A stretch of 64,000 nt of DNA from Clostridia bacterium (GTDB lineage Bacteria > Bacillota > Clostridia > RGIG8785). The position numbers were made by a program, and so were the translations under genes. This document shows positions 16,531-24,885 of this stretch, piece by piece (position 1 is the first letter of the stretch; each line of letters starts with the position of its first letter). Under the pieces are notes generated by a model. That model was not told where the DNA came from. It searched no databases and was given only the letters and a program-made list of their open reading frames with translations. The stretch spans positions 5,056 through 69,055 of the forward strand of contig JAZOOX010000014.1 of NCBI GenBank assembly GCA_045655245.1. The letters run 5' to 3'.

Positions 16531-18270
16531 ATGAAAGAATGGTTAAAGACCCTCCGCGACGGATGGCGGCGGGCAAAACAGTTTTCTTGCAGTCGGCGGA
16601 ACAAGTCGGTAAAGGAGTTGTTGGGAATTTTCCGCGATCCCATCCGTGCATCGGCATTGCCTCTTTTGGGTGGGTTGGTGCTTTTGTTACTGGCGGCGGG
16701 AGCGGATGTTATTGCTCCGAAACTGCAGGAAGCGGTTATCGACAGTGTAGTGGAAAAGAGCGGACTGAACCAAACCCTTTTGTTTGGCGCAGGGGTAGCA
16801 TTGCTCGCCCTGGGGGCGTTGCTTTTTCGAACCCTATCCGATTTCCAACTGCACCGCTCGGAAAACAAACTGATTTTAAAAATACAGACCCAGGTCTTTT
16901 CATATTTATTGGGTTTGCCCAAGACCTACTTTGACGGCAAGGAAAAGGATGGCATCATCAACCGCGTGTCGGCTGACATTTACGGGATGCGGAGCGTTCT
17001 GGCGGTGGTGCTTCACTTCTGCGGACAGATTCCCACCTTGCTGGTCAGCGCAGGGTTCCTGATTGCCAAGCATCCTGTGGTGGCGCTGTGGTCGTTGTTA
17101 CCGCTACCCGTCTTTTTTGGGCTTTCCTATATCATCGGGCGCCGTACCCGTGCCCTTGCCTATTTGGCAGCAGACGAGCGTGCGGGAGTCTACGGCGTTA
17201 TCGCCGAGTCGGTTAAGGGTTCGACCCTGATCAAGACTGACGGAGAGCAGGCGGGACAGGTTAAAAAGTTGGAACGCCGCGGCGAGCAGAATCGTCGGAT
17301 CATGCTGGAGCAACGGGCTTTCGGCAGTCTGATGCGATTTTTGGGCGGGCTTTTCCAAAACGGCAGCAAATTGCTGGTGTTCGGCTTCGGTTTTTATATG
17401 ATGTATCGGGGTGAGCTGACCCTGGGCGGCGTGGTAGCAATGTCCACCTATATCGGGATGGTTTACAGTCCTGCCCAAGCCATTGCCCGTGGTATCCTCA
17501 CCTTGCAGGACGGCTTGACCGCATTAGAACGGGTAGCGGAGTTCTATGAGGTTCAGCCTGAGGATGTACAAAGCGGCCAGACCGCCGAAACGTTACGGGG
17601 GGAACTGACCTTTGACAAGGTTTCCTTTTCTTATGGGCAGGAACCTGTGCTGAAAGAGGTTTCCTTTGCTCTTGCCCCCGGAAAGATGCATTATCTGGTC
17701 GGTGAAAGCGGCGTGGGCAAGAGTACCCTGCTCAGCTTGATTTTATGTCTGTACCGCCCTCATACGGGAAAGATTTTCTTTGACGGTGTTGACCAAAAAG
17801 ATTATGCCATCGAGAGTTTAAGACGGCGGATCGCCTATGTTTCTCAGGAATCCGTTTTCTTTTCGGGGACGGTCGCTGATAATTTGGCGGCACAAACAGG
17901 AGCTGACCGTAAAAGGATTATTACGGCGGCGGAGACAGCAAAGATCCATCAGCGGATTTGCGGGTTGCCCGACGGGTATGATACGGTGCTGGAAAGCGGC
18001 GCACCCCTTTTTTCCCAGGGAGAACGCCAACGATTGAGTCTGGCAAGGGCGCTTTTGCGGGATGCGGATATCTATGTAGTGGACGAACCAACGGCGGCAT
18101 TAGACCCTGTAAATCGTGACGAGATACTGGCGGTATTGGATCGCCTTGCCGAGAACAAGACGGTGCTGGTGGTCACTCACCAGTTAAATATGATCCCTGG
18201 AGGGACGCAGGTTCTTCGCCTAAAAGACGGTGCGCTTTTGGAGGTGTCGGCAGATGAGACGATCCTTTGA
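16531..18270 (+). CDS. ABC exporter, fused permease/ATP-binding protein
   Basis: Six-TM domain plus NBD with Walker A GESGVGKST, signature FSQGERQRL, Walker B IYVVDE; no C39 peptidase domain. Confidence 0.8.
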   Translation: MKEWLKTLRDGWRRAKQFSCSRRNKSVKELLGIFRDPIRASALPLLGGLVLLLLAAGADVIAPKLQEAVIDSVVEKSGLNQTLLFGAGVALLALGALLFRTLSDFQLHRSENKLILKIQTQVFSYLLGLPKTYFDGKEKDGIINRVSADIYGMRSVLAVVLHFCGQIPTLLVSAGFLIAKHPVVALWSLLPLPVFFGLSYIIGRRTRALAYLAADERAGVYGVIAESVKGSTLIKTDGEQAGQVKKLERRGEQNRRIMLEQRAFGSLMRFLGGLFQNGSKLLVFGFGFYMMYRGELTLGGVVAMSTYIGMVYSPAQAIARGILTLQDGLTALERVAEFYEVQPEDVQSGQTAETLRGELTFDKVSFSYGQEPVLKEVSFALAPGKMHYLVGESGVGKSTLLSLILCLYRPHTGKIFFDGVDQKDYAIESLRRRIAYVSQESVFFSGTVADNLAAQTGADRKRIITAAETAKIHQRICGLPDGYDTVLESGAPLFSQGERQRLSLARALLRDADIYVVDEPTAALDPVNRDEILAVLDRLAENKTVLVVTHQLNMIPGGTQVLRLKDGALLEVSADETIL

Positions 18271-18697
18271 CAGCCTTTCGATTTCTGCCGCAAAAGAGAT
18301 CCTGACAGCGGTGTTGGCGACAGGGAACCGGTTTCGGTTCACCGCCCACGGGGTCAGTATGAGTCCGTTCATCCGTGACGGAGACACTGTGGAGTTGGCG
18401 CCCGTTCAAAAGATTCGGCTGGGGGATATCCTTCTGGCAGAAAAGAATGGGCGGTTGTTGCTCCACCGCGCCGTGGCAATCAAAAAGGATACGGTGCTTT
18501 TAAAAGGGGATAATTTGAGTACTCCCGACGGGTGGTTTCGAAAAAAAGAAATTTTTGCAGTTGCCGTTAAGGTGAGTCATCACCAAGTGCACCAAAAATG
18601 GGGACTGGAGCGATTTTCGAAAACAGCGGCAGTGCTTTCTCGGTACAATTTTTTGCGAAAAGCTGCTGTTTTTGGCGCAAAGTTTTTAAAAAAGTAA
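18254..18697 (+). CDS. S24/S26-family serine peptidase-like protein (signal-peptidase/LexA fold)
   Basis: Catalytic-Ser motif GVSMSPFIRDGD and downstream Lys (..KGDNL..); overlaps the ABC gene end by 17 nt (translational coupling); no obvious TM helix. Confidence 0.5.
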   Translation: MRRSFDSLSISAAKEILTAVLATGNRFRFTAHGVSMSPFIRDGDTVELAPVQKIRLGDILLAEKNGRLLLHRAVAIKKDTVLLKGDNLSTPDGWFRKKEIFAVAVKVSHHQVHQKWGLERFSKTAAVLSRYNFLRKAAVFGAKFLKK

Positions 18698-18706
18698 AAA
18701 GAACTA

Positions 18707-18735
18707 TTGACAATCAGAAAAAATGAATGTATAAT
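18707..18735 (+). promoter_or_regulatory. consensus sigma-A promoter for the secreted-protein gene
   Basis: TTGACA (18707-18712), 17-bp spacer, TATAAT (18730-18735): perfect consensus. Confidence 0.8.
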
Positions 18736-18801
18736 GTGATTATCAAAATCCATCGTTGGATGTATTATGTTGTTTGATACAATTCTGGGAGGTAATGTAA
18801 A

Positions 18802-19395
18802 ATGAAAAAGTATCTCGTAATTGCAACTGTATTGGTTGCTCTGGTAGCGTTGTTCAGCATCTCTGCTTCTGCTGCAGATATCGCTTTAGCTGATGTTCAG
18901 TATACTTCCAGTGCTACTGGTGTTACCATTAACCGTGTTGCTATCGGGCTGTCTGGAGCTCCGGTTCCTTCCGGCGACGGTTATTACACTGTTTTGGCAT
19001 ACACCGGTGCAGAAGATCCTTCTGCTGCAACGATTCTGTTTGTAGGTCAGGAAATTACTCCTATTACCAGCTTTAGTGTAAACCCCGCTTCGCTGAATAA
19101 CAGACAGTTGTATGTAAAGTGTGGCGGTAGTGGTGTGGATCAAGCTGGAAACACAAATGCTACTTATGCTTTTTCCCTGGTTGCTTTTGACGAAAATGGA
19201 ATGGCTTTGGATGTAAATAAGTATACCACAGCTGGTACCAAGAAACTGGAAGTTACCGGTGCAGACTCCATCCTTCTGTATGGCGCAGAGATTAGAAATG
19301 AAGCTGACCCGGCATACGTTGGCTTTGAAGTTCCTGGTGGAGATTCCGACGGTACCTATGCTCACCGTGTATACAGACAGTTTGTTGAACTGTAA
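18802..19395 (+). CDS. secreted protein of unknown function (signal peptide, ASA|AD cleavage site)
   Basis: N-terminal MKKYLVIATVLVALVALFSISASA signal peptide; Ser/Thr/Gly-rich beta-type composition; RBS GGGAGG. Confidence 0.6.
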   Translation: MKKYLVIATVLVALVALFSISASAADIALADVQYTSSATGVTINRVAIGLSGAPVPSGDGYYTVLAYTGAEDPSAATILFVGQEITPITSFSVNPASLNNRQLYVKCGGSGVDQAGNTNATYAFSLVAFDENGMALDVNKYTTAGTKKLEVTGADSILLYGAEIRNEADPAYVGFEVPGGDSDGTYAHRVYRQFVEL

Positions 19396-19442
19396 TTTGT
19401 AGGAACTTTTTCAAAAAATATACCATAGAGGAGTGTGTTACC

Positions 19443-20873
19443 GTGTACAATCGATTGGTACGGGTAGTCGCACTGGCTCTCACAATTGTTTTGACGATGT
19501 CCGTTTCGGTTTTTGCTGAGACGGACATTTCTGACAATTACGCCAGTTCTTCTGCCGTTTATGCTGCTGCAAAAGATGTAATTGCCAACGCCAAGGATAA
19601 GGCTGCAACCATTGATATTTACTTAGACCGCGCGTCTACCTACCTTGCATCTAACCGTACCGCTTTGATCAAAGACGGTTTTGTACTGCCTGCCGATGCA
19701 CCTGCTGCTTTGGCTGCTAACCGGAAGGCGGTAGTAGATCTGCTGGCTGCTGACGGAACAGATTACGAGGATTTAATTAAGACCTTGACCGTCCGTGTTC
19801 CTGCAAATTACTCGCTGGATTACGGCACCTTGGTTGTAGATCGTTCTACCATGGAATCCATTCGCGCTGAAGGGTTTTCCCACCTGGTTTTTGAAAATGA
19901 TCTGTTTGCTGTTCGTCTGTCTATGGTAGACTATTTGTCCACCATTCCCGAATCGGTTAAAACAGTTAAGATTTTTGCAGGCGAAACACGCACCGATGTA
20001 CCTCAGTCTGTTTTAGACAAGGCGGGTTCTATGCCTATTTTGGTTTTCCGTGAATACCATGACGGTGTTCAGGTCAACAACAACTATTCCAAAAACGCTG
20101 TTGCCTTCATTGTAAAGAGTTCCATGTACAATGTCGCAGGGCGTTCTCCTTCGGAAAATATGTTCTTTAGGTATGACCTGAAGACGAACAGTGTTCATTT
20201 TGTTGTCAATTACGGTTATTCTGTTGCAACCGACACTGCTTCCTTTGGCGTCGAGGACGGCAACTACTTTATCTTCTTGCCCAAGGAAGCCGAAATGCTG
20301 AAGCCTGTCATCCCTGGCGGTAGCAGTAACAAGTCCGGATACGAAGATGTTTTGGACGAGCATTGGGCTTGTGAGTCCATTCGTAAACTTTCCGGCCGTG
20401 ACGTTATCAGCGGCGTAGGCAATGGGATGTTTGAACCCGAGTCTTTTGTCACTCGGGAACAGTTTGCCAAGCTGTTGGCCGTCGGCTTTGATATGCCCGA
20501 CGCAAGTGATGCGCCTTTCACCGATGTTCCTGCCGATGATTGGGCACATCCCTTCATTTCCCGTGTTTATGCCAAGGGTGTAACCAAGGGAATTGGTGGA
20601 AACCTCTTTGGTTACGGTCAGCGAATCACCCGTCAGGATATGGCGGTTATGATTTACAAGGTCCTGTCTGAAAACGGTGGTCTGGACGATATTAATCGCG
20701 ACAACTTCACCTTTGTTGACGATTCGTCGATTGCCGATTATGCCCGCGATGCCGTTTACGCAATGCGCGCAAAGGGGATTATCAACGGTAACCCTGACGG
20801 TACCTTCTGTCCCAACGATTTTGCCACCCGTGCACAGGCCGCAACAATGCTTTGCTCGGCATTGGGGATTTGA
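19443..20873 (+). CDS. cell-surface protein with C-terminal S-layer-homology (SLH) repeats
   Basis: GTG start after RBS AGAGGAG; signal peptide; three C-terminal SLH-like repeats (..FVTREQFAKLL..; ..ITRQDMAVMIYKVL..; ..FATRAQAATMLCSAL..). Confidence 0.7.
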   Translation: MYNRLVRVVALALTIVLTMSVSVFAETDISDNYASSSAVYAAAKDVIANAKDKAATIDIYLDRASTYLASNRTALIKDGFVLPADAPAALAANRKAVVDLLAADGTDYEDLIKTLTVRVPANYSLDYGTLVVDRSTMESIRAEGFSHLVFENDLFAVRLSMVDYLSTIPESVKTVKIFAGETRTDVPQSVLDKAGSMPILVFREYHDGVQVNNNYSKNAVAFIVKSSMYNVAGRSPSENMFFRYDLKTNSVHFVVNYGYSVATDTASFGVEDGNYFIFLPKEAEMLKPVIPGGSSNKSGYEDVLDEHWACESIRKLSGRDVISGVGNGMFEPESFVTREQFAKLLAVGFDMPDASDAPFTDVPADDWAHPFISRVYAKGVTKGIGGNLFGYGQRITRQDMAVMIYKVLSENGGLDDINRDNFTFVDDSSIADYARDAVYAMRAKGIINGNPDGTFCPNDFATRAQAATMLCSALGI

Positions 20874-20875
20874 GT

Positions 20876-21169
20876 ATGGCTTTAGCAGAATCGGTTGTCT
20901 TCAAAAAACACTCCGAACTGGTCGAGCGTGAGATTGAAGGAGAAATCCTGGTTATCCCGATTATGGCCGGTGTCGGTGATGCGGATGCCAATATGTATTC
21001 TTTTAATAACCAGGGCGCGGCAATATGGGGTCTTATCGATGGCGAGACCTCGTTGGGTGAAATTGCAGACCGTCTTTGTGAAGAGTACGAGGTAACCCGC
21101 GACCGTGCGTTACAGGAAACAGTTGTGTTTCTGGAGGAACTTGCGGAACGGAACTTGATTTTACAGTAG
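20876..21169 (+). CDS. PqqD-family protein (RiPP recognition element-like)
   Basis: 97 aa; ..EGEILVIPIMAGVGDADANMYSFNNQGAAIWGLIDGETSLGEIADRLCEEYEV..ETVVFLEELAERNLI matches the PqqD/RRE fold pattern; ATG 20876 three nt after the SLH gene stop. Confidence 0.75.
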   Translation: MALAESVVFKKHSELVEREIEGEILVIPIMAGVGDADANMYSFNNQGAAIWGLIDGETSLGEIADRLCEEYEVTRDRALQETVVFLEELAERNLILQ

Positions 21170-21209
21170 CGCAGTCCGAAAAGACGGAGATTTGAAATGA
21201 GGGATTTGA

Positions 21210-22322
21210 ATGGAGCAACGTCGTACACCGACTTCATTTGAATTTTTAAAAAAGAAAGCGGCGGATAAAACGCCGCTTTCTTTAAGTGTAGAGTTAACGG
21301 CGCGTTGCAACAACGATTGCCGACATTGTTATATCAATGTCCCCGCAGGGGATATCGCTGCCAAGGAAAAGGAACTCCCCCTTACCGAATGGGAAAGGAT
21401 TGCCGATATGGCACGAGATGCAGGAGTGCTCTGGTGCCTGATTTCAGGCGGGGAACCCATGCTTCGCAGTGATTTTTTTGACCTTTACATGATGTTTAAA
21501 CGTAAGGGGTTTTTGATCACTCTCTTTACCAATGCAACCTTAATGACCGAAGAGGCAGTGGCGTTTTTCAAGCGGTATCCGCCCTATAAAATTGAGGTTT
21601 CGGTCTACGGCGTTACCGACGATACTTATTTTGCGGTCACAGGAAAACGTGGGTACTGTCAGCGGATGAAAGAGGGCATTGAACGGTTGCGTGCTGCGGG
21701 GCTATACACCTGCTTGAAAACCCCTTTGATTCGTTCGAATCAGCAGGAGGCAGAAGCAATTTACCAATACTGTCGGGAACGGTCTTCTGAACCATTTCGT
21801 TTTGATACCATTCTACACAACCGGGTGGACTTTGACGCCGACCGCAATCGCTCGATTGCTGAAGAACGGTTAACACATCAACAGGTACTGGACTTGGAAG
21901 GCTTACGTCCTGAACGGTTGGAAATTTTAAAAAATGCGTGTCTGAACTCGCAACGTCAACTGCGTATCGACCCGGTCACGGGAGAACAACCGTTGTTTCG
22001 TTGTCGTGCGGGGGCGGAAAGCATCACGGTTGATCCTTATGGCAGAATGCGCCTTTGTGCTATGTTATCGGGTCCTGAATTCTTATATGATTTGAAGAAG
22101 GGCACCATTGATGAGGCCATGGGACCATTTCGGGATAGGATTTTGACAATGCCCAACAAAAACCCCGCCTTTGAACGGTGCCGCGGCTGTCGGGCGTTGC
22201 CCCTTTGCAACTGGTGTCCCGGCCGTGCCCTTTTGGAGATGGGAACAGTGGATGCCTTTATGCCAGAACTTTGCCGATTGGCAGAGAAACGCTTTGATGC
22301 TTTGACCAAGGAGGATGTGTAA
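21210..22322 (+). CDS. radical SAM/SPASM-domain peptide-modifying enzyme
   Basis: CNNDCRHC (C-x3-C-x2-C) rSAM cluster motif; C-terminal SPASM motif CRGCRALPLCNWC (C-x2-C-x5-C-x2-C). Confidence 0.85.
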   Translation: MEQRRTPTSFEFLKKKAADKTPLSLSVELTARCNNDCRHCYINVPAGDIAAKEKELPLTEWERIADMARDAGVLWCLISGGEPMLRSDFFDLYMMFKRKGFLITLFTNATLMTEEAVAFFKRYPPYKIEVSVYGVTDDTYFAVTGKRGYCQRMKEGIERLRAAGLYTCLKTPLIRSNQQEAEAIYQYCRERSSEPFRFDTILHNRVDFDADRNRSIAEERLTHQQVLDLEGLRPERLEILKNACLNSQRQLRIDPVTGEQPLFRCRAGAESITVDPYGRMRLCAMLSGPEFLYDLKKGTIDEAMGPFRDRILTMPNKNPAFERCRGCRALPLCNWCPGRALLEMGTVDAFMPELCRLAEKRFDALTKEDV

Positions 22323-23197
22323 TGCGGGACGAAAAATGTTACGGGATGTATGCCGCGGCGGGAATTACCTTTCGGCTGTTTTCCGAACGCCCTGTTACAA
22401 CTTCCACTTTTGCACCCAAAATGGACAAGTTTGCCGTTGCCGAGACGGGCGCCGAGGTGGTGGACGTCCATCACCATTTTACCATGCCCCAACGGCGGTT
22501 CGATACATCACCTGTGTACAACACCTCCCCCTGGACCATTTACCAGGAAGGGGAGACCTGGCACTATGTTTGGACCAATAAGCTGACCCGGACGGTGGAA
22601 TACTACGCCGTTTTTACCGAGGAATACCATCAGGTACACATCTACCACTACAACACCGATCTTTGGGATCGGGGGAATCACGTGGGACTGTTGATGCGCA
22701 CCAATGATCAGGTGCTGTTTTTGCCCCTGCTTTGGCAGCGGGGTGGATTTGTGCTTCATTCCTCGGCGGTGGTTCAGGGGGATCGTGCCATTGTTTTGGT
22801 GGGGCATTCGGGCGCGGGGAAGAGTACTGCTACCAATCACTTTGGAAAAGATGCAGTGGTCATCAGCGAAGACCGCAATATTATTCTACCCGAGAATGAC
22901 GCGTTTTACGTTTACGGTTCCTGGATTCATTATAACAACGATCGTATCACCAATGACCGTAAGCGAGTAGATGCGTTGTACTTCATCAAAAAGGCCAACG
23001 AAACCCGTTTAGAACCTTTAAAACCCTTGACCGCAATACACGAAACGCTGTCCCATGTCGCTCGTGGATACGCCAATGCCAAGGGCTGGAATGCCACCGT
23101 TGATGCAGTGGAAAAATTTATTCAAAAAAATTTATGTTTTTACTTGCATTTTGAAAAAGATGGTGGTATAATGAATTTACTAAATCGTCAAAATTGA
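22322..23197 (+). CDS. HPr-kinase C-terminal-domain-like P-loop protein (putative peptide kinase)
   Basis: Walker A GHSGAGKST as in HprK; ATGA start/stop overlap with the rSAM gene. Confidence 0.65.
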   Translation: MRDEKCYGMYAAAGITFRLFSERPVTTSTFAPKMDKFAVAETGAEVVDVHHHFTMPQRRFDTSPVYNTSPWTIYQEGETWHYVWTNKLTRTVEYYAVFTEEYHQVHIYHYNTDLWDRGNHVGLLMRTNDQVLFLPLLWQRGGFVLHSSAVVQGDRAIVLVGHSGAGKSTATNHFGKDAVVISEDRNIILPENDAFYVYGSWIHYNNDRITNDRKRVDALYFIKKANETRLEPLKPLTAIHETLSHVARGYANAKGWNATVDAVEKFIQKNLCFYLHFEKDGGIMNLLNRQN

Positions 23198-23233
23198 TTT
23201 AATAATGTAAAGTTTCATTGGGAGGTATATGAG

Positions 23234-23395
23234 AATGAAAAAGGTATGGGAAACTCCTGAAGTTGTAGCAGTAGTACATGGTAGCCCTGAAGAAGCTGTT
23301 TTGATGACTTGCTATGATGATTTGACTTGCGAATTCGATGCAGCCGAAAGCACTGGGGCTGAATTTCTGACTGTTGATCTGGCTGCTATCAGCTG
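23234..23395 (+). CDS. putative RiPP precursor peptide (53 aa; below ORF-track cutoff)
   Basis: RBS GGGAGG (23219-23224) 9 nt before ATG 23234; MKKVWETPEVVAVVHGSPEEAVLMTCYDDLTCEFDAAESTGAEFLTVDLAAIS; W-x-x-P leader motif, acidic two-Cys core, C-terminal Ser; terminator follows. Confidence 0.5.
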
Positions 23396-23430
23396 ATTTT
23401 TACATTTTTCACAACCAAAAATGACAATTA

Positions 23431-23470
23431 CCAAGTTGTTGGGATACCGACAGCTTGGTTTGTTGTGTCT
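23431..23470 (+). terminator. terminator after the precursor-peptide gene
   Basis: CCAAGTTG..(loop)..CAGCTTGG hairpin followed by a T-rich tract. Confidence 0.6.
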
Positions 23471-23535
23471 TTGAACAAACGAGCTGTATCGGAAATACGA
23501 AAGGCGGGGAAAGGGGACTTTCTCTGCTTTTTTTC

Positions 23536-23564
23536 TTTACATTAATAGGAGACTGTGGTACAAT
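23536..23564 (+). promoter_or_regulatory. sigma-A type promoter of metY
   Basis: TTTACA (23536-23541), 17-bp spacer, TACAAT (23559-23564). Confidence 0.6.
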
Positions 23565-23619
23565 AAAGCCAATACCAAAAGGGGGTTGCCCCTGCTTATA
23601 CCAAACGGAGGTGTCTCGA

Positions 23620-24885
23620 ATGAGAATTGAAACCAAGTGTATTCAAGAAGGATATGAGCCGAAAAACGGAGAACCGAGAATGCTCCCCATTTTTCAGAGC
23701 ACGACCTATAAATACGACAGCGCCGAGCATTTAGGGAAACTTTTTGACTTAGAGGCTCCGGGGCATATGTATACCCGCATCTCCAATCCTACGGTGGATG
23801 CGGTTGAAAAGAAGATTGCCGCTTTGGAAGGCGGTATCGGTGCTCTTTGTACCTCGGGCGGTCAGGCAGCCAGCCTGATTTCGGTCATGAACATCTGTCG
23901 TGCAGGAGACCATATCATCAGTTCCTCTGCCATTTACGGCGGTACCTTGAATCTTTTTGACGTGACCTTGCGGAAGTTTGGCATCGAGACTACTTTTATT
24001 CCCCCGGATGCAGACGAGGAGACTTTAGAAGCTGCCTTCCGTGAAAACACCAAGCTGGTCTTTGCTGAGAGTCTGTCCAACCCTTCTCTGGCGGTAGTGG
24101 ACCTGGAACTCTTTTCCCGCATTGCCCATGCTCACGGGGTTCCGCTGATTATTGACAACACCTTCCCCACGGCGGTGAACTGCCGTCCCTTCGAGCACGG
24201 TGCTGACATTGTGATTCATTCTACTTCTAAGTACATGGATGGCCATGGCGTTTCGTTGGGCGGTGTCATTATTGATTCGGGTAAATTCCAGTGGTCTCCC
24301 GAAAAGTTCCCTGACCTGGTTGAGCCGGACGAGTCCTACCACGGCGTTAGCTACGTTCGTGATTTTGGTGCGGCGGCGTACATTACCAAGGCCCGTGTCC
24401 AGCTAATGCGTGACCTGGCATCGTCCCCCTCGCCCTTTAACGCTTTTTTGCTGAATTTGGGGCTTGAGACCCTACCTTTACGGATGAAGCAGCATTGTGA
24501 AAATGCGATGAAGGTTGCCGCATTTTTGGATGCCGAGGACAAGGTGGCATGGGTTTGCCATCCCTCTTTAAAATCCCATCCCCAGTATGATTTGGCGCAA
24601 AAATACTTGAAGGACAGTGGTTGCGGCGTCATCTCCTTTGGTGTGAAAGGCGGACGGGAAGCTGCAATGAAACTGATGAACAGCCTACAACTTGCCAAGA
24701 TTGTAGTCCACGTTGCAGATGCCCGTACTTGTGTACTCCATCCCGCATCTACCACCCATCGTCAGCTGACCGACCAACAGTTAGTCGAGTGTGGTGTGAA
24801 ACCCGAAATGATCCGTCTGTCGGTGGGTATTGAGCATGCTGACGACATCATTGATGACCTGAAGCAGGCGTTGGCAAGATTATGA
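23620..24885 (+). CDS. metY: O-acetylhomoserine sulfhydrylase (PLP-dependent Cys/Met metabolism family)
   Basis: Family signature (..PIFQSTTYKYD..; ..YTRISNPT..; ..HSTSKYMDGHG..); RBS GGAGGTG before ATG 23620; the listed ORF start (23455) lies in the upstream terminator/promoter region. Confidence 0.85.
   Translation: MRIETKCIQEGYEPKNGEPRMLPIFQSTTYKYDSAEHLGKLFDLEAPGHMYTRISNPTVDAVEKKIAALEGGIGALCTSGGQAASLISVMNICRAGDHIISSSAIYGGTLNLFDVTLRKFGIETTFIPPDADEETLEAAFRENTKLVFAESLSNPSLAVVDLELFSRIAHAHGVPLIIDNTFPTAVNCRPFEHGADIVIHSTSKYMDGHGVSLGGVIIDSGKFQWSPEKFPDLVEPDESYHGVSYVRDFGAAAYITKARVQLMRDLASSPSPFNAFLLNLGLETLPLRMKQHCENAMKVAAFLDAEDKVAWVCHPSLKSHPQYDLAQKYLKDSGCGVISFGVKGGREAAMKLMNSLQLAKIVVHVADARTCVLHPASTTHRQLTDQQLVECGVKPEMIRLSVGIEHADDIIDDLKQALARL

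Follow-up and report, generated by a model that had tools for sequence, protein, structure and literature searches.

A clostridial PqqD, radical-SAM/SPASM and HprK-fold cassette with a serine-terminated precursor peptide, a candidate source of a crosslinked and phosphorylated RiPP

Between positions 20876 and 23396, the window (the whole 64-kb stretch of DNA that was analysed) encodes a PqqD-type recognition protein, a radical-SAM (rSAM) enzyme with a seven-cysteine SPASM domain, a P-loop protein of the HprK/PEPCK fold and a 53-residue peptide. The gene set is real and ordinary-looking, and would modify a small ribosomal peptide chemically; it is a variant of a gene combination flagged earlier by bioinformatics only, and the locus represents an uncommon clostridial offshoot of a family that is very large and spans several phyla. 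We hold with moderate confidence that the product is an exported RiPP with a cysteine crosslink made by the rSAM enzyme and a phosphate on its terminal serine; the steps, their order, the cleavage site and the role of the product are what we infer from genes, folds, motifs, peptide conservation, and the co-occurrence and fusion of components, all of which are observed directly. The gene set matters because the family is very large, crosses phyla and has peptides that end in serine and an uncharacterised product. So far the combination of HprK-like protein, PqqD and rSAM/SPASM has been a curated-database cassette of unknown product, and a literature search found no publication on it; the locus and its relatives supply a concrete set of related precursors in over 3000 sequence clusters, add an exporter and an S24-like Ser-His peptidase to the core components, and give a sharp, cheap prediction in which the invariant terminal serine is the kinase site and the conserved cysteines are the rSAM site.

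All genes of the cassette lie on the forward strand, and the four named above follow the order D-E-C-peptide. A preliminary description had located all four of them correctly, and each outcome that it forecast for computational checks was borne out, but it had set the limit of the cassette too narrowly; it reaches upstream to an ABC transporter (16531-18270) and an S24-like peptidase (18230-18697). The former is a 579-residue fusion of permease and ATPase (PF00664 and PF00005) without a C39 peptidase domain, and is the candidate exporter; the latter, of 155 residues (PF00717, E 1.3e-7), has a Ser43-His79 pair (GVSMSP ... LHR ... KGD) and is the candidate leader peptidase. A promoter-like site, TTGACA-17-TATAAT (18707-18735), identified as a 12/12 match to consensus, stands upstream of five genes, which encode a 197-residue secreted protein, a surface protein with SLH repeats, PqqD (20876-21169, 97 residues), the rSAM enzyme (21210-22322, 370 residues) and the ScmC-family P-loop protein (22322-23197, 291 residues). 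The secreted protein (18802-19395) has an N-terminal signal peptide and matched no Pfam or NCBIfam model; it is kept in three related loci (L001, L002 and L028). The rSAM and ScmC genes overlap by a single nucleotide at 22322, in the sequence TAATG and not, as first described, ATGA.

The 53-residue peptide (23235-23396; MKKVWETPEVVAVVHGSPEEAVLMTCYDDLTCEFDAAESTGAEFLTVDLAAIS) is a real gene, beyond a chance open reading frame. Its start is preceded at a distance of 9 nt by a GGGAGG ribosome-binding site (23220-23225), and its end is followed by two terminator-like hairpins at 23430-23459 and 23499-23532 (23430-23532 overall; fold z = -6.4). The preliminary description had proposed both the ribosome-binding site and the hairpins, and had called the gene hidden; it is a called protein in the contig's public NCBI record. 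The gene also has a promoter-like site with an extended -10 element, TTGCAT-17-TGgTATAAT (23144-23172), lying within the ScmC gene, at its 3' end; this site was read directly from the sequence, since the promoter scan did not report it because its -35 hexamer matches at only 3/6 positions. The reading frame is kept in five further clostridial loci (L001, L002, L025, L026 and L028; six with the window), whose ScmC proteins are 57-91% identical to that of the window; the promoter-like site is conserved in 6/6 of these loci, and the ribosome-binding site and first hairpin are conserved in the homologous clostridial loci as well. Over codons 1-32, the window and its clostridial homologues differ by 5-14 synonymous versus 1-7 non-synonymous changes. 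An upstream ATG at 23229, which would give 55 residues, is not conserved in homologues, and 53 residues is therefore the right length. The leader, KKVWETPEV, has the motif [Y/W]-E-x-P, and the core has two conserved cysteines (T-C-Y-D-x-x-x-C); the last 20 residues are hypervariable among the clostridial loci, differing in length as well as in sequence. A short reading frame with W-x-x-P, two cysteines and a C-terminal serine, suggested at the outset as the feature to look for in syntenic loci, is indeed maintained there.

In a profile search, the precursor proved homologous to a family of 3003 sequence clusters, mostly from Acidobacteriota, which no source names and for which there is no NCBIfam model. 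Its common features are the [Y/W]-E-x-P leader, a PEEAVLxxC junction (SPEEAVLMTC in the window, corresponding to the acidobacterial RPEEAVLGHC), two or three cysteines and an invariant C-terminal serine; among the best 120 of the 3003 clusters, 120/120 end in GS and 119/120 have three cysteines. Members of the family adjoin PqqD, rSAM and ScmC genes as in the window. Searches that started from ScmC found PqqD-rSAM-peptide-ScmC-S24 modules in Acidobacteriota, Deltaproteobacteria, Planctomycetota and Thermomonas, and searches that started from the peptide recovered PqqD-rSAM-peptide-ScmC. Distant cassettes in other phyla keep an aromatic-x-x-P leader, two or three cysteines and the terminal serine; some peptides near distant modules were selected by a terminal-serine filter and are not independent support for that residue, and where no filter was set on the last residue, every peptide (those of L003 and L006, and three in L017) has serine there. 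In one complete module (L015), no precursor was detected within 10 kb. The last cysteine is separated from the terminal serine by 18-21 residues in the clostridial branch versus exactly 5 in 120/120 acidobacterial peptides, and by 5-7 in five other lineages; because the spacing differs, the clostridial and acidobacterial branches may not make the same structure.

The PqqD protein belongs to the family to which it had first been assigned (PF05402, E 1.5e-16). Among NCBIfam models it scores best against lasso_PqqD_Bac (40 bits, under the cut-off of 80), and a lasso B1 protein from Paenibacillus shares 25% identity with it. The leader had been described as PqqA-like; its W-x-x-P motif stands, but leader and PqqD together are closer to lasso-type leader/B1 pairs than to PqqA/PqqD.

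The initial assignment of the second enzyme to the rSAM/SPASM group likewise stands, by a PF04055 match (E 5.9e-21) and by its cysteines. Cys33, Cys37 and Cys40 of the CNNDCRHC motif are invariant among 14 homologues from several phyla, and seven C-terminal cysteines (265, 283, 324, 327, 333, 336 and 355) are conserved in 12-14 of the 14, so that the SPASM pattern is a full one. The Pfam SPASM model itself gave no match to the window enzyme at E 0.01, and is annotated on the homologue in L003. The nearest curated model is ScmE (TIGR04250), at 76.1 bits versus a cut-off of 400, with the PqqE and mycofactocin rSAM models among the better NCBIfam matches; among solved structures SkfB comes nearest (E 4e-9), over the rSAM core only. 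A six-frame search of the whole 64-kb window with the rSAM query returned this single match, leaving no ScmF partner, and the syntenic loci have one rSAM gene each. The enzyme thus has the CxxxCxxC motif and seven-cysteine SPASM of generic rSAM/SPASM RiPP maturases, together with an adjoining short precursor gene, a conserved leader, a variable core and an RRE partner.

By fold, ScmC belongs with the HprK/PEPCK proteins, and the HprK-like family first proposed for it is the one that was matched: it shares a 90%-identity cluster with P0001, which carries Pfam PF27840 (ScmC), its membership being that of the cluster representative's annotation and not of its own model score, and all 10 homologues carry PF27840. 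H146, the Walker A motif G161-H-S-G-A-G-K-S-T169 (GHSGAGKST) and D184 do not vary among 10 sequences, the most distant of them 24% identical; loss of catalytic residues would have spoken against the preliminary description, and the Walker A, His and Asp of the HprK core are all retained. The core aligns with residues 25-78 of HprK (1jb1, E 0.02) and with the LHGS...GDSGAGKST...DD core of the kinase from L021, with 38% identity over 68 residues; L021 is a true lasso cluster of the paeninodin type, and serine is the last residue of its precursor too. The window protein gave no match to Pfam Hpr_kinase_C (PF07475), to which a fused relative (P0023) scores 23.3 bits versus a gathering score of 33.3; the TIGR04249 ScmC equivalog gave 22.8 bits versus a cut-off of 125, related loci scoring 28-44 bits. 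Since the NCBIfam scores all fall far under their cut-offs, no function can be transferred from any equivalog. Lasso HprK homologues act on the linear precursor, phosphorylating its C-terminal serine with little recognition of any other part (PMC8498205). The invariant His, Walker A and Asp and the 38% core identity to a lasso kinase make ScmC a candidate kinase for the C-terminal serine of the precursor. In other organisms the rSAM enzyme and ScmC are fused into single proteins of 570-680 residues, an arrangement as compatible with a coupled reaction, in which phosphate might be the leaving group, as with a stable phosphoserine.

Four known systems, PQQ biosynthesis among them, come closest. 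As the preliminary description had suspected, related neighbourhoods had been flagged bioinformatically, in the NCBIfam SynChlorMet models (TIGR04249, TIGR04248, TIGR04250 and TIGR04251) and in Pfam ScmC (PF27840); there, too, an HprK-related P-loop protein, a PqqD homologue and an rSAM/SPASM enzyme adjoin, and the models for ScmE, ScmC and ScmD rank high among the curated matches to the window proteins. Membership of the SynChlorMet cassette proper was rejected: the window lies under every equivalog cut-off tested (76 versus 400, 22.8 versus 125 and, for its PqqD against TIGR04248 ScmD, 22.3 versus 100), and it has a single rSAM gene where SynChlorMet has ScmF as a second. It also differs in its D-E-C-peptide order, in the attached S24-like peptidase and ABC exporter, and in its evident precursor, whereas the SCM precursor is not known to have been identified. 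With paeninodin-type lasso systems (kinases such as PadeK; pseudomycoidin) the window has in common the kinase core LH(G/S)S...G(D/H)SGAGKST...(D/E)D, a stand-alone PqqD/B1, an MKK-W-x-x-PE leader, a precursor ending in serine and an ABC exporter, and thus the combination of PqqD-like B1, HprK-like kinase and serine-ending precursor; it differs in having rSAM/SPASM as the class-defining enzyme, an S24/S26-like protease and two conserved core cysteines. The comparison suggests that the cassette and the phosphorylated lasso peptides are linked by evolution, with leader, RRE and kinase retained and the class-defining enzyme exchanged. Sactipeptide (AlbA, SkfB) and ranthipeptide (PapB, CteB) systems resemble the window in their full SPASM rSAM enzyme, cysteine-containing core and RRE-dependent leader recognition; the sequence relationship is weak (SkfB, E 4e-9), the RRE of the window is a separate protein and its crosslink is a prediction. 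We know of no kinase partner in either class.

The best NCBIfam model for the S24-like protein is the archaeal-type signal peptidase I, and an alignment of homologues shows no variation in its Ser, His-Arg and Gly-Asp motifs. Homologues flank ScmC in eight loci (L008, L009, L012, L013, L015, L018, L020 and L022), and in L017 the two are fused as ScmC-S24. The ABC transporter gene has an equivalent position in L001 and L002, and ABC genes adjoin the ScmC modules of L014, L017 and L022.

These components suggest the following course for our favoured reading. The stand-alone PqqD would bind the N-terminal leader (KKVWETPEV) and present the peptide to the enzymes; the rSAM/SPASM enzyme would modify the core at or adjoining the two conserved cysteines, a cysteine-derived thioether or related crosslink being the likeliest product; ScmC, in complex with the rSAM enzyme, would transfer phosphate from ATP to the hydroxyl of the invariant serine at the C-terminus, like the homologous lasso-peptide kinases. 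The Ser-His peptidase would then cut off the leader near the PEEAVLxx/C junction, although it could process neighbouring secreted proteins instead, and the ABC transporter would export the product. If true, this would be the first phosphorylated rSAM-modified RiPP, and would give access to a large family, so far unexplored, in uncultured Clostridia and soil Acidobacteriota.

An unlikely alternative is that the phosphate placed by ScmC on the C-terminal serine, or on another hydroxyl, is a leaving group, and that elimination or radical chemistry by the rSAM enzyme, fused to ScmC or associated with it, then links the nearby cysteine to the C-terminal residue, giving a small C-terminal macrocycle of the lanthionine or aminovinyl type without LanB or LanM. 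The rSAM-ScmC fusions speak for it, as does the ring-sized Cys-Ser spacing of the acidobacterial peptides (5 in 120/120) and of five other lineages (5-7), and lanthipeptide synthesis offers a precedent: in classes II-IV, serine and threonine are phosphorylated ahead of elimination. Against it, the spacing in the window's own branch is long and variable (18-21 residues), a lyase or cyclase homologue is absent, and the lasso kinases, the nearest experimentally studied relatives, leave the phosphate on (PMC8498205).

A broader proposal, in our judgement distinctly improbable as a whole, is that of a new RiPP class defined jointly by three features. An HprK/PEPCK-fold kinase would be physically coupled to an rSAM/SPASM enzyme, as its fusion in many organisms suggests; the serine phosphate would serve as a permanent charge or handle, or else as the leaving group for a C-terminal ring closed by cysteine; and the product would be handed to a dedicated surface protein, not simply secreted. 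That protein would be SLH-anchored here, and elsewhere a giant CLIPPER/C25 'sortase-like' protein with a cytoplasmic S24 leader-peptidase domain of its own. Were this so, few uncharacterised RiPPs of soil Acidobacteriota would be more abundant than this family.

The surface destination may also be considered by itself, the modified peptide being processed by, or covalently attached to, the accompanying large surface protein; this, too, we think unlikely. A large secreted protein recurs beside the module in four lineages. In Acidobacteria these proteins measure 2566-3084 residues; they begin with an S24-like domain and also carry a hydrophobic stretch, some 10 CLIPPER repeats and a peptidase domain of the C25 (gingipain/PorU) type; C25 proteins with PKD domains lie directly 3' of the peptide in L003-L006, and a C25 protein lies nearby in L020. 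In the window, the counterpart is a 476-residue protein (19443-20873) with three SLH repeats, whose N-terminal domain occurs only in the window's clade and whose gene stops 2 nt before the PqqD start. The link is nevertheless one of adjacency, and synteny in one narrow clade carries little weight; the window protein has no C25 domain, its model resembles other folds only weakly, and a dedicated ABC exporter is present.

It is very unlikely that the cassette makes an intracellular peptide-derived redox cofactor, like PQQ or mycofactocin, and not an exported product. The PqqD-family chaperone with a PqqE-like rSAM/SPASM enzyme, the PqqE and mycofactocin matches, and the fixed position of the locus between prmA and a PLP enzyme gene of Cys/Met metabolism in all relatives would fit such a role. 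The small precursor also has aromatic-x-x-P, as in the PqqA/PqqD/PqqE system. The window differs from PQQ loci in having no PqqB, PqqC or PqqF genes; the Pfam lists of the syntenic loci, which reach 8 kb to each side, hold nothing resembling PqqB/PqqC or MftD/E/F, sequence inspection of the precursor shows neither an E-x3-Y pair nor a C-terminal Val-Tyr, and the rSAM enzyme scores 73 bits against the PqqE cut-off of 381, all of which agrees with the early judgement that this is not PQQ. The hypervariable C-terminal 20 residues are unlike cofactor precursors, and an ABC exporter and peptidase are part of the set. Divergent tandem precursors are typical of secreted RiPPs, and L017 has three.

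That the locus is a degenerate or split paeninodin-type lasso cluster, with its cyclase and B2 protease elsewhere, is hardly credible, for all that the leader (MKKVWETPEV; lasso MKREWQKPEL), PqqD and kinase core resemble Firmicute lasso systems: in agreement with the first reading of the locus as no lasso peptide, no Asn-synthase-like cyclase (phmmer with the L021 cyclase, E <= 0.01) or transglutaminase-like B2 leader protease was matched in six frames of the 64-kb window, both are absent from syntenic loci, core positions 7-9 after a plausible cleavage site hold no acidic residue, as judged by eye, that could act as acceptor in ring closure, and the rSAM and kinase genes share one base, the two proteins being fused elsewhere.

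Four close-packed genes lie on the plus strand of the window exactly as the preliminary description had them: a 97-aa PqqD-like recognition protein (20876-21169; Pfam PqqD, E 1.5e-16), a 370-aa radical-SAM (rSAM) enzyme (21210-22322; Radical_SAM, E 5.9e-21), the 291-aa P-loop protein ScmC, which carries GHSGAGKST (22322-23197), and a 53-aa candidate precursor (23235-23396) with GGGAGG 9 nt upstream. One detail required correction; the rSAM stop and ScmC start had been read as an ATGA overlap, whereas the junction is TAATG, with ScmC starting one base inside the stop. The CxxxCxxC motif of the rSAM enzyme comprises Cys33/37/40, and further Cys occur at 265, 283, 324, 327, 333, 336 and 355. When the enzyme was aligned with 13 homologues from several phyla, Cys33/37/40 were invariant and the seven C-terminal Cys were present in 12-14 of the 14 sequences, the pattern that marks a complete SPASM domain and its two auxiliary clusters.

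The small ORF is a real gene. A search of 5.8 billion proteins turned up just ten relatives of the window's ScmC, and the contigs of five close ones (57-91% identity) were readable; in all five, as had been proposed, a syntenic short ORF of 50-53 aa occupies the same place downstream of the HprK-like gene. Residues 1-28 of the peptide are nearly identical across these loci (MKKVWE[T/A]PE..VVHGSPEEAVL.TCYD), and codon differences in this conserved part are mainly synonymous (5-14, versus 1-7 non-synonymous). The tail after the second Cys, 18-21 residues long, varies in sequence and length, and the final residue is Ser in every close clostridial locus. An extended -10 promoter-like site (TTGCAT-17-TGgTATAAT, 23144-23172, plus strand) lies within the 3' end of the ScmC gene, ahead of the precursor, and two strong hairpins (z = -6.4) follow the ORF; promoter, ribosome-binding site and first hairpin are kept across the close clostridial loci. 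The public NCBI record of the contig already lists the 53-aa peptide as a called protein.

The cassette is larger than first given, in that an S24-like peptidase (18230-18697, plus strand; PF00717, E 1.3e-7) is part of the conserved gene set too. Its homologues follow ScmC in nine loci, in one of which, a Pirellulales locus, the two are fused; in Acidobacteriota the S24-like sequence forms the N-terminal domain of the protein encoded next. Alignment showed an invariant G-x-S-M-x-P, an equally invariant His-Arg in place of the Lys-Arg of LexA, and a Gly-Asp, and the best NCBIfam match was TIGR02228; the protein is a Ser-His enzyme resembling archaeal/ER-type signal peptidases. An ABC transporter gene (16531-18270, plus strand) precedes the S24-like gene and overlaps it by 41 bases. 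Further fusions came from the 150 best of the 7108 ScmC-like representatives: some twenty of the 150 are 570-680 aa long, and all five of the long proteins scanned had an N-terminal Radical_SAM domain. Such fusions tie the rSAM enzyme to ScmC within a single process.

Sequence models recognised ScmC weakly (HprK_rel_B, 26 bits; ScmC, 22.8 bits). Because a ScmC profile run against PDB sequences gave P-loop-level matches alone (HprK 1jb1 at E 0.02), a fold search was needed to place the protein; every remaining P-loop kinase in the ScmC comparison stayed below 5. His146, the Walker A segment G161-T169 and Asp184 are invariant down to 24% identity, and they align (38% identity over 68 residues) with LHGS...GDSGAGKST...DD of a lasso-cluster kinase from Paenibacillus cremeus. 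That kinase belongs to a genuine, standard paeninodin-type cluster (locus L021, 12171-17846) with an Asn-synthase-like cyclase, a PqqD B1 protein, a transglutaminase-like B2 protein, an ABC transporter and the precursor MKREWQKPEL...DLTFS. The window resembles lasso systems further in its leader, MKKVWETPEV, and in its PqqD protein, for which lasso_PqqD_Bac was the best model. The simplest reading of these sequences is that the cassette would share with phosphorylated lasso peptides a unit of leader, recognition element, kinase and terminal Ser, the class-defining enzymes having given way to an rSAM/SPASM enzyme plus an S24-like peptidase. P. cremeus also has a second module (L021, 5309-10277) of HprK-like protein, PqqD and ABC transporter; a 569-aa protein that matched nothing in Pfam is part of it, and a lasso cyclase is lacking.

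The same arrangement recurs far beyond the clostridia. Searching a genome collection with the ScmC alignment, one genome per species, yielded 18 loci, the nearest species representative being 29% identical, and phmmer searches with the window proteins found PqqD, rSAM and ScmC adjoining in Acidobacteriota, one deltaproteobacterium, two Planctomycetota and one Thermomonas, usually with an S24-like peptidase directly after them. Every such locus but one (L015, acidobacterial) has a short ORF with [Y/W]-E-x-P, a junction of the type RPEEAVLGHC (the window has SPEEAVLMTC), 2-3 Cys and a C-terminal Ser; two distant ScmC relatives (24-25% identity) have the order ScmC-PqqD-rSAM/SPASM-peptide, with the peptide MKKPYEKPAVIYKERIEARASSCG...GCSAPFVS. 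Since one peptide hunt had been pre-filtered on a terminal Ser, and hence was biased, the claim of a conserved terminal Ser rests on three other lines. All five peptides recovered as unfiltered precursor matches end in Ser. A precursor profile search of a big protein collection returned 3003 clusters at E <= 0.01, and among the best 120 of these all 120 end in GS and 119 have three Cys. Two look-ups that took a peptide as their starting point led back to PqqD-rSAM-peptide-ScmC. Seven precursor peptides matched no family in NCBIfam (June 2026), apart from a weak rhodolasso match of the window peptide at E 0.11, and none of the sources searched gave a name to peptides of this family. The window locus is a rare clostridial branch of a very large, uncurated RiPP-like family. 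This branch numbers about ten relatives; its peptide tail is long, acidic and variable, and its operon includes a surface protein with SLH repeats.

The interpretation put forward in the preliminary description was upheld as far as computation reaches, and we regard it as very probable that the locus is a RiPP cassette acting on the 53-aa peptide. The genes were observed directly, with their folds and motifs, as were their co-occurrence and the fusions between them; the chemical steps are inferred. PqqD would bind the precursor leader, the rSAM/SPASM enzyme would crosslink the core at its pair of conserved Cys, ScmC would phosphorylate Ser53, the S24-like peptidase would cut off the leader near the junction between PEEAVLxx and C, and the ABC transporter would export the product. 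The entire scheme, terminal-Ser phosphorylation included, is held with less assurance, though we still lean towards it. The main rival, which we consider rather unlikely, takes the phosphate as a leaving group, with a nearby Cys closing a C-terminal ring; the spacing between the last Cys and the terminal Ser is indeed exactly five residues in every one of 120 acidobacterial peptides and five to seven in five further lineages, but in the window's own clostridial branch it is 18-21 residues and variable.

Among named systems the nearest is SynChlorMet (ScmC, ScmD, ScmE and ScmF), but because the window proteins score far under its cut-offs (22.8 versus 125, 22.3 versus 100 and 76 versus 400 bits) and the cassette, unlike SynChlorMet, has no second rSAM gene, it falls outside that equivalog set; all related loci tested also missed the cut-offs. 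The broader, newer Pfam family PF27840 'ScmC' does cover the window protein. This gene combination had already been flagged by bioinformatics, and the window locus is a variant of it. The open-access literature searched contained no paper that places an HprK-like protein alongside an rSAM RiPP enzyme, and RiPP/rSAM survey papers and an rSAM-SPASM review mentioned no kinase. Solved sactisynthases are only remotely related to the rSAM enzyme (SkfB, E 4e-9). As the preliminary description had it, the locus is neither a PQQ cluster nor a lasso-peptide cluster; lasso cyclase and B2 protease are absent from every frame of the whole 64-kb window.

A perfect sigma-70 consensus (TTGACA-17-TATAAT, 18707-18735) lies directly 3' of the S24-like gene and 5' of the gene for a 197-aa secreted protein (p197), and suggests that p197, SLH, PqqD, rSAM and ScmC may form one operon. 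GC content is 41-49% at 18400-21600 and 22800-23600, versus 50-59% in flanking genes; the difference may stem from another codon usage, or part of the cluster may be foreign. A plasmid collection searched with the 2.6-kb region gave no match. Neighbouring genes include spoIIAA-spoIIAB-sigF and ctsR-mcsA-mcsB-clpC, which point to an endospore-forming Firmicute. A 220-nt structured leader (23397-23620) without an Rfam match stands ahead of a Cys/Met-metabolism PLP enzyme gene, and no Rfam family was found anywhere in the 64-kb window.

Several related loci showed further variation. In one Pirellulales locus (L017, 7462-8046), three tandem precursor genes with near-identical leaders and differing cores, all three ending in Ser, lie upstream of PqqD, rSAM and the ScmC-S24 fusion. 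In a locus of an uncultured Clostridia genome (L012, 9770-11192), a ScmC-like protein of only 237 aa is encoded next to PqqD, and an S24-like peptidase comes after that; an rSAM gene and a recognisable precursor were looked for there and neither was found. Acidobacterial rSAM enzymes (L008, L010, L011, L013, L015 and L018) have about 60 extra C-terminal residues, absent in the window enzyme, with a CxxC motif and a terminal GC..GSCG motif. The acidobacterial ScmC gene is followed by one for a protein of 2566-3084 aa (L008, 10482-18182; L013, 10497-19751; L018, 10722-19367; L030, from 7248 onwards; L032, from 7120 onwards), which opens with an S24-like peptidase domain at the N-terminus, runs through a hydrophobic segment into some ten CLIPPER/DUF11 isopeptide-bond repeats and closes with a Peptidase_C25 domain. 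A predicted cytoplasmic leader peptidase is thereby joined to a giant surface adhesin/protease. Large Peptidase_C25 proteins also adjoin the module in L003 (10755-14144), L004 (4508-8158), L006 (10648-14139) and L020 (2-5719, minus strand), those of L003-L006 carrying PKD domains as well; C25 proteins thus stand beside the module in two other lineages, and the link between RiPP module and C25 surface protein therefore recurs.
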